Shown here piece after piece: positions 19,925 through 22,600 of a stretch of 64,000 bases of DNA. The notes under the pieces are model-generated. The model ran no database searches and had not been told where the DNA came from. It saw nothing but the letters and a program-made list of their open reading frames with translations. The stretch lies in NCBI GenBank assembly GCA_022072205.1, contig JAJVID010000004.1, forward strand, positions 10,242-74,241, written 5' to 3'. This DNA is from Acidobacteriota bacterium. Its GTDB lineage: Bacteria; Acidobacteriota; Blastocatellia; RBC074. The translations under genes were made by a program, and so were the position numbers. Numbering within the stretch: position 1 is the first letter of the stretch; each line of letters opens with the position of its first letter.

Positions 19925-22600
19925 TCACTTCACATGCCCGCCGGTTCCAGCCCAGACGATCAAGCCAGGCAGGAACGGCGTGATCAAATCGGGATGATGC
20001 GGCAGCGCGCGGACGGTGAAGCCGTGCAATCCGCTCCGGCAGCAGGCGACTGAACTGGCCTCGAAACGATAACGACCCGCGCCGCCGCCGTCTACTGGTC
20101 GCATCGGGATTGCCCGCGCTTCGGTGATCTCATCGTCGGCGTTGACCAGCCCCAGATAAAGCTCGACGGACACGTCGTCGGGCGTGAGCGCGCCCAGCGA
20201 CAACTCAGCCTGCGCCTTGATTTCGCCATTGACCTGAACCTCATCGAGCGAATCCGCCGTCACCGACTCGATGCGCACCTTTGGCCATTGATCTCGCACT
20301 CGGTTTTTCCAGGCGGCCAGCGATCTGGCGCGCGCCATTCCATCGGCCATCAACTGCTTCCGCCGCTCGGCCGCCGGCAGGTAGAACCGTTCGGCGTATT
20401 CGCGCGCCATCCGATGAGTGTTGAAGAAGTGGCAGAGATTGCCGATCGAAGCCTTCATTCGTTCAATCCAGCGGCGCGGCAATTTGTCCGCCCCACGATC
20501 GTAGAAGGTCGGGATCACATCGCCTTCGAGCAGATCGTAGAGGGCCTCGGCTTCGACCTGATCCTGGTAATCAGGATCGTCGTAAGTTTCGCCGCGTCCA
20601 ATCGCCCAGCCGATTGCGGATTGCGGATTGCGGATTGTGGATTGGTCAAAAGCCTGGATCGAGCTTGAGATAAGGGCATTCTCAAATCCGCAATCCGCAA
20701 TCCGCAATCCGCAATCCCAGGCTTCGTCCCACCAGCCGTCGAGCGTGCTCAGATTCAAGACGCCGTTCGCCGCCGCTTTCATCCCGCTCGTTCCGCTCGC
20801 TTCGAGCGGGCGCCGGGGCGTGCTCAGCCAGACGTCGGCGCCCTGCGTCATCGAACGCGCGACGGCCATGTCGTAACCTTCCAGAAAGATCAGGCGATTG
20901 CGGAATTCGGGGCGGCGGCTGAGCGCAATGATCTGCTTGATCAATTCCTTCCCGGCGTCGTCGTGCGGATGAGCCTGCCCGGCGAAGATGACCTGTGCGG
21001 GACGGCCAGCGTTATTCAAAATGCGCGCCAGGCGTTCGGGATCGCTGAGCAACAGGTTCGCGCGCTTGTAGGTCGCAAAGCGCCGCGCGAAGCCGATGGT
21101 CAGCGCGTCAGGGTCGAGCATTTCATCAGCCGCTTCAATCTCCGATTGCGGAGCGCCGCGCCGTTCCAGTTGCTCGCGCAAACGGCGGCGCGCGAAGGCG
21201 ACCAGGCGTTCGCGCCGCCGCTCGTGCGTCCGCCACAACTCTTCAGCCGAGATGCGGCGGATGCGCGTCCAGAGCGACTGGTCGGCAGGCTCCTCGCGCC
21301 AGCGCGGCCCCAGGTGGCGGTCGTAAAGCTCATCCATCTCCTGCGAAATCCACGATTGAAAATGGACGCCGTTGGTGACGTGGCCGATGGGAATCTCTTC
21401 TTCGGGCACGCCGGGCCACAGCGACCGCCACATCCGGCGCGTGACCTCGCCGTGCAACCGGCCCACGCCATTACTCGATTGCGCCAATCGCAACGCGAGC
21501 ACGGTCATGCAGAACGGCTCGGCGTCATCGTTCGGATCCTTTCTCCCCAACGCCAGAAAATCGCGGAACGAAAGGCCGAGACTGTCGGCGTACTCGGCGA
21601 AGTATCGTTCCATCAAATCCGGCTGGAAGTAATCGTGGCCCGCGGGCACGGGAGTGTGCGTGGTGAAGATCAATCCGGCGGAAGCCGCCTCGCGCGCTTC
21701 GGCGAACGAGAGCTGGCGCGTCTCCATCAACCGCCGGATGCGTTCGAGCGCGAGGAAGGCCGAATGACCTTCGTTCAAATGGTAAACGCTCGGCTGAACT
21801 CCCAACGCCTCCAAGGCGCGACAACCGCCGATGCCCAGCGCCATCTCCTGCTGGAGGCGCATCTCCGCGTCGCCGCCGTAAAGCTGATCGGTGATGTCCT
21901 GATCGCGACGGCTGTTTTGCGCGATGTTGGTGTCGAGCAGGTAGAGCGCGACGCGGCCCACCTGCGCGCGCCAGATTTGCGCGGCGACCTTGCGGCCCGG
22001 ATACGCGACTTCGACGATCAACGGCTCGCCGTCATGATTCCGCTCAAGCGTCAAAGGCAGGTTGTGAAAATCGTTGTCCCGGTACTCCTCCTGCTGCCAC
22101 CCGGCTTCGTTCAGGTATTGGCGGAAATACCCCTGCTGGTAAAGCAATCCGACGGCGACGAGCGGCACGCCCAGGTCGCTCGCCGATTTCAAATGATCGC
22201 CGGCAAGAACGCCCAAACCGCCGGCGAAGATCGAGAGGCAATCGGTGATGCCGAATTCAGCCGAGAAGTAAGCGACAAGCGGGCCGCCGGTTTCGCCGTG
22301 GCGCTTGCGGAACCAGGTGGATTCCCCCTTCAGATAAGCGTTGAAATCATTCGAGACGCGATTGAGATGCGCCAGGAAGCCTTCGTCAGACGCGGCGGCC
22401 CGCAAAGTGTCTTGATCAATCGCGCCGAGCATCAGGGCCGGGTTGTGACCTGATTTCTCCCACAGGTCGCGGTCCCAGCGGAATAACTCGATCGCATCGT
22501 GATTCCACGCCCAGCGCAGGTTGTAGACCAGATCGCGCTGCCGCTCCAATTCGGGCGGCAGAAAAGGCGTGACCGTGAATGTGCGGATCGGTTTCACCAT
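19925..22600 (-). CDS. glgP: Alpha-glucan (glycogen/maltodextrin) phosphorylase, GT35, DUF3417-type, carrying an in-frame repeat insertion
   Basis: DUF3417 N-terminus (LVYNLRWAWNHDAIELF) and GT35 core with the PLP-site region GTSGMKAAANGVLNLSTLDGWWDEAW. About 36 extra residues ([11 protein letters not shown]...[10 protein letters not shown]) are encoded by the heptamer palindrome at 20612-20718. Confidence 0.9.
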   Translation of the reverse strand: MVKPIRTFTVTPFLPPELERQRDLVYNLRWAWNHDAIELFRWDRDLWEKSGHNPALMLGAIDQDTLRAAASDEGFLAHLNRVSNDFNAYLKGESTWFRKRHGETGGPLVAYFSAEFGITDCLSIFAGGLGVLAGDHLKSASDLGVPLVAVGLLYQQGYFRQYLNEAGWQQEEYRDNDFHNLPLTLERNHDGEPLIVEVAYPGRKVAAQIWRAQVGRVALYLLDTNIAQNSRRDQDITDQLYGGDAEMRLQQEMALGIGGCRALEALGVQPSVYHLNEGHSAFLALERIRRLMETRQLSFAEAREAASAGLIFTTHTPVPAGHDYFQPDLMERYFAEYADSLGLSFRDFLALGRKDPNDDAEPFCMTVLALRLAQSSNGVGRLHGEVTRRMWRSLWPGVPEEEIPIGHVTNGVHFQSWISQEMDELYDRHLGPRWREEPADQSLWTRIRRISAEELWRTHERRRERLVAFARRRLREQLERRGAPQSEIEAADEMLDPDALTIGFARRFATYKRANLLLSDPERLARILNNAGRPAQVIFAGQAHPHDDAGKELIKQIIALSRRPEFRNRLIFLEGYDMAVARSMTQGADVWLSTPRRPLEASGTSGMKAAANGVLNLSTLDGWWDEAWDCGLRIADCGFENALISSSIQAFDQSTIRNPQSAIGWAIGRGETYDDPDYQDQVEAEALYDLLEGDVIPTFYDRGADKLPRRWIERMKASIGNLCHFFNTHRMAREYAERFYLPAAERRKQLMADGMARARSLAAWKNRVRDQWPKVRIESVTADSLDEVQVNGEIKAQAELSLGALTPDDVSVELYLGLVNADDEITEARAIPMRPVDGGGAGRYRFEASSVACCRSGLHGFTVRALPHHPDLITPFLPGLIVWAGTGGHVK
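20612..20718. repeat. Heptamer-array palindromic element: (GGATTGC)n ... spacer ... (GCAATCC)n, inserted in-frame in glgP
   Basis: Left arm gattgcggattgcggattgcggattgtggattgg, a 39-bp spacer, then right arm aatccgcaatccgcaatccgcaatccgcaatccc. The glgP ORF reads through it. Confidence 0.85.

Follow-up and report, generated by a model that had tools for sequence, protein, structure and literature searches.

A heptamer-array hairpin inserted in frame into an acidobacterial alpha-glucan phosphorylase gene, a probable copy of a palindromic micro-repeat

How can a gene for a conserved enzyme carry a long palindrome of tandem heptamers and still be read from end to end? The question is raised by the alpha-glucan phosphorylase gene glgP in a stretch of 64,000 nucleotides from contig JAJVID010000004.1 of an Acidobacteriota bacterium. 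This stretch, called the window in the following, is ordinary chromosomal DNA of a Blastocatellia-like organism, and its GlgP is 100% identical to a protein of an NCBI metagenome assembly. The insert in glgP is a hairpin of 106 nt (20612-20717) built of two inverted arrays of about 32 nt with the unit GGATTGC/GCAATCC. We lean towards reading it as a derived, in-frame copy of a selfish or neutral heptamer-array micro-repeat, similar in kind to repetitive extragenic palindromes (REP) and Rickettsia palindromic elements (RPE), which has come to lie in a hypervariable loop of GlgP. The host gene and the parts of the insert, the arms being named for the coding strand, are:

19925 to 22600, minus strand: host gene, alpha-glucan phosphorylase (GT35, DUF3417 type), 891 aa, intact, with the lysine motif for pyridoxal phosphate EASGTSGMK and the Pfam domains DUF3417 and Phosphorylase.
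20685 to 20717, minus strand: 5' arm, perfect (GGATTGC) x4.7; the plus strand reads AATCCGC x4.7; 100% identical in the orthologue L200.
20645 to 20684, minus strand: loop of 40 nt, encoding ENALISSSIQAFD; 69% identical to L200, with indels.
20612 to 20644, minus strand: 3' arm, (GCAATCC)-type x4.7 with one substitution (CCACAATCC); the plus strand reads GATTGCG x4.7 with a single G>T change.

Each arm is a direct tandem array of heptamers and is not self-complementary. Over their 32 nt the arms are 97% complementary, and they are separated by 40-41 nt; an earlier reading made from the letters alone (the sequence-only reading) had described a perfect hairpin with a spacer of 39 bp. The hairpin itself was confirmed by repeat analysis and by folding. 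RNA of the coding minus strand folds with about -73 kcal/mol compared with -41.5 +/- 4.0 kcal/mol for shuffled sequences (z = -7.85), and none of 200 shuffles was as good. The heptamer GGATTGC occurs 33 times within the window, about twice as often as expected from shuffles (15.8 +/- 4.1). A comparison with Rfam revealed no match at gathering scores, the hairpin reaching only sub-threshold similarity to generic hairpins of miRNA precursors, and a scan for promoters and terminators around glgP showed nothing above shuffles.

Translation demonstrated that the open reading frame (ORF) of glgP continues uninterrupted through the insert, and the protein is an otherwise canonical GT35 enzyme, as had been proposed. 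The solved alpha-glucan family phosphorylase PDB 9l6i matches GlgP residues 8-867 with E = 7e-197. Residues 630-661 are unmatched in 9l6i, the chain of which runs from 630 to 632 with one to two residues at this point; the addition therefore amounts to 32 residues and not to the 36 or so estimated before. Relatives with 40-60% identity all possess a loop of four residues (E[AG]Y-xxxx-GW) among the metagenome matches listed, and the GlgP forms of 853 aa have a four-residue loop as well (WWDEAYQPEVGWAIG). These metagenome matches are at most 66% identical, none of them contains an insert, and they are informative on the ancestral state only. An insert-free orthologue is also found much closer (P0016, locus L203, 84% identical): its blastn alignment with the window breaks at exactly 20614 and 20717, and 102 nt of the window are matched by only 15 nt in L203. 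Because the distant relatives, 9l6i and L203 are without a counterpart, the insert is derived and not ancestral. The alternative named by the sequence-only reading, an ancestral segment carried by distant orthologues, is thus contradicted by the relatives at 40-60% identity, and its description as a lineage-restricted, tolerated in-frame addition holds. An AlphaFold model of GlgP based on an alignment of 30 sequences was poor (pLDDT 58.7, residues 585-731 below 50).

The insert site varies in length in all clades. At least four extra residues are present at this one site in 79 of 120 GlgP orthologues, and other insertion sites in these orthologues are sporadic, each being used in one to four sequences. 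At the DNA level the window was compared with eight orthologues from independent assemblies, which gave the following arm units and folding energies:

Window: GGATTGC, about -74 kcal/mol.
L200 (independent ENA assembly): GGATTGC, -84 kcal/mol.
L207: GGATTGC, short remnant only, -32 kcal/mol.
L201: GGAATGC, -81 kcal/mol.
L202: AGAGCGGG, -76 kcal/mol.
L204: GAGGATC, -54 kcal/mol.
L205: GGGAGTRT, -76 kcal/mol.
L206: GGATTTC mixed with GGAATGC and GCAATCC, -60 kcal/mol.
L203: without insert, -19 kcal/mol.

Hairpins with energies of -54 to -84 kcal/mol are therefore present in six of the eight orthologues, at least six different units occur at the site, and the arms measure 29-35 nt regardless of the unit. 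The loops are conserved within a type and unrelated between types, the period changes from 7 to 8 between types, and the peptides encoded at the site are unrelated between orthologues. In a neighbour-joining tree calculated with the insert masked, the hairpin types are intermixed inside a clade of 84-88% identity, and we conclude that whole elements, beyond the arm units alone, are exchanged at this site. All insert-bearing forms have the boundaries EAW...[I/V/F]GW in common, which may indicate that the loop was remodelled once, long ago, and then underwent in-place turnover or allele exchange. Smaller changes were also detected: P0005 has lost three units of one arm in frame, and P0018 contains an extra segment of five codons in both arms which is codon-complementary. 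The peptide test for codon complementarity sees only codon-aligned arms, and the types missed by it had already been proven to be hairpins at the DNA level. The possibility that the insert arose from a local seed within the codons for GWAIG (GCGATTGG) was considered and rejected, because this seed lies on the wrong strand and leaves the other units at the same site unexplained. The sporadic extra segments in other loops of GlgP are located after residue 90 and after residue 340 in P0048/P0095 and after residue 103 in P0058. They look repeat-derived (SARPVLSSVEGLSTGL, DAETRGRKDTE...SPRVPAF and PSGRASGRG), and therefore other permissive loops of GlgP seem to be hit occasionally.

Toleration of such an insert in a coding region is probably favored by the unit itself. 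All six frames of GGATTGC are free of stop codons, and since 7 and 3 have no common factor, the three frames of a strand encode one and the same heptapeptide, which is AIRNPQS for one strand and GLRIADC for the other. An in-frame insert therefore requires only a total length divisible by three, and selection for frame-preserving insertion, as suggested by the sequence-only reading, is not needed. The DNA of the arms is strongly conserved: between the window and L200 62 of 63 arm nucleotides are identical, whereas identity is 86% over the whole gene and falls to 73% at third codon positions and to 69% in the loop, and the copy number of the arms is the same in both (88% protein identity). This identity, the codon-complementary extra segment of P0018 and compensated unit changes between two intergenic elements of the window (32177 and 62342, see below) point to maintenance of the arms at the DNA level, probably by homogenisation.

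The second gene of the window that carries the heptamer encodes a permease of the resistance-nodulation-division (RND) type:

42045 to 45356, plus strand: host gene, RND (AcrB-family) permease, 1103 aa.
42919 to 42954, plus strand: lone (GCAATCC) x5.1 array, in frame, without inverted partner.

The presence of the same heptamer in this gene had been noticed before and was confirmed. The array lies in a loop that is followed by the sequence QPAVTISxAKRKG; the number of units at this position is 0, 2 or 5 in orthologues, or other repeats take their place. The shorter NPQS forms differ by exactly 7 aa, which corresponds to 21 nt or three units, and hence frame-keeping variation in length does occur. 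The proposal of length variation can be retained in this sense for the RND gene; for glgP phase variation is unlikely, as the copy number is the same in the 88%-identical orthologue. Alternative contents of the RND loop in orthologues are GDGATGRRGDGA (from a GGCGACGG array), VPPSGG...PPEGGT, ASQRISTASGSERV, SHQPPAT and ALRTPHS; at the DNA level the locus L251 contains a REP-like palindrome of 26 bp and the locus L250 two adjacent, non-complementary arrays. The sequence of another palindrome of the window (7463-7538, ACCGCGAGCGGTAGCGAGCG) appears in frame as TASGSERV in the RND loop of other genomes. In L200 (18554-21790) the RND orthologue was called as four fragments, with one of the frameshifts adjoining the heptamer array; we take this fragmentation as sequencing or assembly errors and not as a pseudogene.

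UvrA provides a third case, independent of the other two. In the verrucomicrobial metagenome-assembled genome (MAG) L062 an array is located in the linker before GWLTVVGAxENNL, and orthologues have NLKSEILNLKS, NQKSEIINHKS, SHQSPITNH, RHSSFDIRHS or NSKFKIQNSK in the same linker; UvrA of Chthoniobacter flavus is without an array. The UvrA arrays replace part of the old loop with a net gain of 4 aa, and a clean insertion of 33 nt (11 codons) is therefore not demonstrable at this site. Judged from these alignments, the GlgP, RND and UvrA sites seem to undergo the same turnover of repeats. UvrA-like genes of three unrelated MAGs (L030, L062 and L099, one from Gemmatimonadota and two from Verrucomicrobiota) contain a GCAATCC array at three different positions of the protein. 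In a Chloroflexia MAG (L093, 1204-6104) in-frame heptamer arrays were found in four consecutive genes for a transporter of the energy-coupling factor (ECF) type, namely at an N-terminus, in a C-terminal tail, in a loop of a membrane protein and, as a hairpin, in the linker between the two ATPase domains of a fused ABC protein of 548 aa. The latter case suggests that stop-free hairpins can serve as linkers in gene fusions. Arrays as the ends of a larger transposon were rejected, because in L093 the DNA between inverted arrays that are far apart consists of ordinary genes for the ECF transporter.

A scan for exact copies of (GCAATCC)3 yielded at least 119 genome stretches from more than eight phyla and, in addition, 42 stretches of viral contigs. 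Acidobacteriota, Planctomycetota, Verrucomicrobiota, Gemmatimonadota, Chloroflexota, Bacteroidota, Armatimonadota and several proteobacterial classes are represented among the matches listed. Array statistics were obtained from 1.23 Mb of sequence around the matched loci. A period of 7 was found in 303 of 453 tandem arrays, and the median length is 32 nt both for GGATTGC arrays and for 139 other heptamer arrays. An inverted partner (at least 80% identity, within 200 nt) is present for 114 of 340 arrays compared with 0 in the control, with a median spacing of 33 nt (5-95% range 10-139 nt); lone arrays without a partner form the majority. The ends are phased, 63% of the arrays starting with (C)AATCC and 54% ending with GCAAT(C), and the mode of the length is 31-33 nt. 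From phase and length we derive a canonical module of five CAATC/GATTG cores at a distance of 7 nt. Among other units at the same loci, one-base variants of GGATTGC account for 20% (1.6% expected) and units with a GATT core likewise for 20% (5.5% expected), so that these units in part form a mutational cloud around GGATTGC; the remainder, 55%, is unrelated to it.

Most arrays are intergenic, and they are depleted from ORFs: 11% are internal and in frame, compared with 41% of random positions, on the basis of a crude coding call. As this call, which uses GC content at third codon positions, has a sensitivity of about 50%, the intragenic fractions are rough. About 40 of 181 arrays are convincingly intragenic, mostly in the AIRNPQS reading, and the intragenic share overall is about 11-22%. 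For lone arrays the raw calls are 40 for the AIRNPQS reading versus 19, many of the 19 being antisense duplicates of the same array. On the viral contig L234 (IMGVR_UViG_3300050015_000263; 3208-3228, 4553-4692 and 7145-7165) one and the same cassette is found in front of three genes, consisting of a stop codon, (GGATTGC)n, GGATTGAAGAGAAATAYA... and ATG; one of the arrays comprises about 20 units interspersed with GGAATGC. To judge from its sequence, this cassette resembles a leader or an intergenic module that is repeated in a phage genome. Longer GGATTGC arrays with 9-12 or more units occur in L054 (7737-7820), L095 (1-60) and L235 (783-845), some of them at contig ends, and may be expansion-prone copies or assembly breakpoints.

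Taken together, these results are best accommodated, in our opinion, by a micro-repeat that is tolerated where it does little harm. Inside genes it would survive owing to its stop-free unit combined with a total length that is a multiple of three. Selection at the protein level would filter only the position (loops, linkers and termini) and, for lone arrays, the orientation, the hydrophilic AIRNPQS being preferred. Slippage would homogenise the units, inside genes in steps of three, and template switching or templated correction from arm to arm would keep the arms complementary. Loops and linkers bearing an element would then be preferred for further exchange, and other repeat families would replace elements in place. 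The insert in GlgP is, on this account, a tolerated passenger in a variable loop, and its role for glgP is probably nil.

Several observations weigh against this interpretation. No target-site duplication, for which the sequence-only reading had recommended an alignment of orthologues, was found: the flanks in glgP, GCCTGG and GGCTGG, code for the conserved A-W and G-W. The three bases flanking 181 arrays are heterogeneous, and each of the loci examined has a loop of its own, not conserved between copies. Neither a transposase nor a REP-associated tyrosine transposase (RAYT), an integrase or a reverse transcriptase was detected among the 46 ORFs of the window, neither a transposase between or beside the arrays at the examined loci nor a parent insertion sequence was found, and clustering of 1137 ORFs from 161 loci revealed no recurrent gene family beside the arrays beyond common ABC ATPases and phage structural genes. 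The window contains three arrays of the GGATTGC unit, all of them intragenic, and the copy number is known for these 64 kb only. As the boundaries are common to all insert-bearing forms of GlgP, some apparently independent insertions may represent one old event with subsequent divergence or allele exchange. Selection for a functional nucleic-acid structure would explain the strong conservation of the arms just as well. Finally, REP families are normally specific for a species or genus, whereas the exact heptamer array is common to many phyla, which points to a conserved trans-acting partner or function. Since neither a target-site duplication nor a conserved internal sequence nor a transposase was found, the mobility considered by the sequence-only reading is an inference.

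A more far-reaching idea, which we put forward only tentatively, is that a discrete module of about 33 nt with five GATTG cores and phased ends, together with its relatives built of 7-9-nt units, is written into genomes by a sequence-specific process common to many phyla and their phages. Such a process, which would amount to a novel type of micro mobile element or of templated insertion, would preferentially re-target existing hairpins or arrays, remodel loops and linkers (GlgP, RND, UvrA, ABC ATPases) and could supply stop-free fusion linkers.

A functional nucleic-acid element, an explanation which we regard as rather unlikely, would account for some of the observations just mentioned. The arrays would bind a conserved DNA- or RNA-binding protein, or the stem would be a signal for processing or stability of RNA, either as a substrate of RNase III or as a REP-like 3' protector. 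The copies in glgP and in the RND gene would tune expression, and spread would be due to molecular drive, as in DNA uptake sequences, and not to transposition. The unit, size and end phase are identical in more than eight phyla, conservation of the arms clearly exceeds that of synonymous sites whereas the loop drifts, complementarity is kept via compensated changes, and many arrays are located directly upstream of start codons, as is the leader (GGATTGC)n-GGATTGAAGAGAAATAYA-ATG on three genes of L234; furthermore, a perfect RNA duplex of 32 bp is long enough for RNase III. For analogous arrays of Geobacter metallireducens, sites for global regulators have been proposed by the authors (PMC2700814). 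A regulatory or processing signal is difficult to reconcile with a majority of lone arrays and with the in-frame loss from one arm in P0005. Likewise, the units vary widely in sequence, 55% being unrelated to GGATTGC, the affected genes are unrelated (GlgP, RND, UvrA, ABC ATPases and a putative phage terminase-like ORF), and Rfam contains no corresponding family, the matches being sub-threshold and to generic hairpins. To our knowledge, neither a protein binding such arrays nor a phenotype has been described.

A purely local origin, in which slippage and template switching in a variable loop generate the hairpin as a contingency tract of variable phase or length and no dispersal takes place, is improbable in our estimation. 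Local processes do act on the arrays: RND arrays of different orthologues are exactly three units apart in length, one arm of P0005 has been shortened by three units, all units have changed in concert between 32177 and 62342, and the sites are hypervariable even without repeats. A change of a single heptamer unit would also shift the frame, as expected of such a tract. What these processes do not predict is that the same unit, size and end phase recur at hundreds of unrelated loci in many phyla, and that arms and loop differ wholesale between GlgP types, including the shift of the period from 7 to 8. Orthologues with 88% identity have kept the same number of copies in the arms, the array length is tightly peaked instead of broad, and neither GlgP nor an efflux pump counts among the typical contingency genes.

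An adaptive insertion, in which the roughly 32 residues would give GlgP a loop selected for its structure or for regulation while the palindrome in the DNA would be incidental, is very unlikely. The insert is retained in many orthologues, and the orientation bias of lone arrays indicates that the peptide matters to some degree, but the peptides at the site are unrelated between orthologues and the close relative P0016 lacks the insert; the conserved features (complementarity, arrays) belong to the DNA and not to the peptide, and the same sequences are mostly intergenic. An artefact of assembly or sequencing can practically be dismissed although all of the at least 119 genome matches are MAGs, because hairpins are present at the orthologous site in independent assemblies from NCBI, JGI and ENA, L200 having the same one, the arrays of 32 nt are shorter than the k of 141 suggested by many contig names (k141_…), and the insert lies in frame in conserved genes and has diverged by point substitutions.

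The micro-repeat reading places the glgP hairpin beside several described classes of small repeats. RPE are in-frame palindromic repeats in genes (Ogata et al. 2000, as summarised in PMC10969869). Like RPE, the element is a palindrome of about 100-150 bp located in frame in unrelated housekeeping genes, the product of which is apparently functional, and both can be read as selfish DNA at permissive positions. They differ in phylum, and RPE copies have a conserved full-length sequence and peptide, whereas here only the arms are common and the loops are unique; moreover, the copies described here are mostly intergenic, and the same site holds different families in orthologues. Sequence homology to the Rickettsia RPE families is implausible from the composition and the simple-repeat arms.

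The closest anatomical description is that of the tandem heptamers and octamers of G. metallireducens (Aklujkar et al. 2009, PMC2700814). This genome contains 49 copies of four tandem GGACCGG units inside and between genes, and pairs on opposite strands at variable distance of 4x GTTGCTYN, 3x TCTCCGTS[Y] and 5x MTYCTGA. Four to five tandem units of 7-9 nt, intragenic and intergenic positions and opposite-strand pairs at variable distance are common to both. GGATTGC differs, however, from GGACCGG, GTTGCTYN, TCTCCGTS and MTYCTGA. The G. metallireducens elements were described for one genome only and read as regulator-binding sites, with no analysis of frame, same-site turnover or cross-phylum distribution, and some insertion sequence (IS) elements were found there at a fixed distance from the sites, which is not seen here.

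REP and their inverted doublets (REPIN) are short, abundant and mostly extragenic, the inverted doublets form hairpins, and they fill intergenic gaps inside operons (PMC3116915); they are also known as targets for further insertions. The heptamer arrays are likewise short and mostly intergenic, and the inverted doublet forming a hairpin is present. The REP unit, however, is an imperfect palindrome of 20-40 nt and species-specific, whereas here a direct tandem array occurs across phyla, a sizeable minority of the heptamer arrays is intragenic, and no RAYT was seen in the 64 kb examined. The element is therefore not a REP, because its unit is not palindromic. It has terminal inverted repeats like a miniature inverted-repeat transposable element (MITE) but is not a MITE, because a target-site duplication and a conserved core are lacking, and it is not a typical contingency repeat, because the copy number of the arms is stable.

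Palindromic amphipathic repeat coding elements (PARCELs) resemble the arrays as coding repeats with dyad symmetry in the DNA and a patchy distribution over distant taxa that suggests horizontal spread; they are domain repeats of 25 residues in dedicated proteins, in contrast to arrays of about 11 residues in loops of housekeeping enzymes. Short tandemly repeated repetitive (STRR) sequences of cyanobacteria, tandemly amplified heptanucleotides dispersed through the genome with CCCCAGT and others as units, were reportedly described by Mazel and colleagues in 1990. Elhai and colleagues are said to have found, in 2008, very small repeats (21-27 nt) nested in heptamer arrays and hairpins, the mechanism of their spread being unknown. 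These differ from the present arrays in unit and phylum, and we know of no report on a fixed module of about 32 nt or on in-frame recurrence at orthologous loops for cyanobacterial STRR or small dispersed repeats. The general kind, selfish or neutral palindromic micro-repeats in protein loops, is thus known, and the heptamer-array variant is barely described. In the literature searched no paper prints these exact strings, none deals with heptanucleotide repeats in Acidobacteria, and none characterises the cross-phylum pattern of heptamer arrays beyond one genome. The recurrence of different families at the same site, the phased module of about 32 nt, the spread over phyla and phages and the further hairpins of the same design in the window go beyond the sequence-only reading.

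For glgP alone the finding is modest, and the wider cross-phylum pattern matters more. A dedicated process for writing the arrays, if it exists, would give tiny repeats a new way to shape loops, linkers and perhaps fusions in soil and freshwater bacteria. Stop-free arrays also inflate ORF calls, yield spurious 'hypothetical proteins' and confuse alignments, and they can serve directly as markers of the sites at which enzymes permit insertions.

The window contains further hairpins with tandem-repeat arms at 15022-15090, 32207-32284, 49577-49620 and 62380-62450, the second and the fourth of which belong to larger nested elements:

15022 to 15090, no strand assigned: (ACGGAACAG)n / (CTGTTCCGT)n, intergenic hairpin with the design of the glgP element; in L200 the equivalent position, downstream of the HSP20 gene, is without it.
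32177 to 32321, no strand assigned: intergenic nested element of about 145 nt, outer inverted repeat CTAAATCGAAAC...GGTCTGATTTAG, inner arms (CACAGAGnn)3 / (nnCTCTGTG)3.
62342 to 62492, no strand assigned: second copy of the nested element, inner arms (CGCAGAGnn)3 / (nnCTCTGCG)3.
49577 to 49620, no strand assigned: intergenic hairpin, (GTGGTTA)n / (TAACCAC)n, filling the whole gap between two co-directional genes; the unit contains stop codons.

The copies at 32177 and 62342 (about 150 nt) have the outer arms GGCTAAATCGRAAC...GGTCTGATTTAGCC in common, and because of these they appear to form a MITE-like family which is separate from the heptamer arrays. Between them all six inner units are changed in a compensated manner (CACAGAG/CTCTGTG versus CGCAGAG/CTCTGCG).

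REP-like palindromes, at least 12 elements, were found in most of the inspected intergenic gaps, including gaps inside the RND and cytochrome operons. Long ones are located at 3982-4033, 5888-5945, 7463-7538, 9676-9767, 19369-19439 (with perfect arms of 35 nt), 40675-40839 and 50863-50941, and the core GTAGGGGCGRGTTTTCCCCGCCC is common to the last two. A single ORF of 2216 aa on the minus strand (50992-57642) combines AsmA/TamB, POTRA and Omp85 domains and, from this combination of domains, looks like a fusion of the two components of the translocation and assembly module (TAM). A formate-dehydrogenase-like molybdopterin oxidoreductase (45447-48155) is encoded about 10 kb from the selenocysteine elongation factor SelB (58310-60259).

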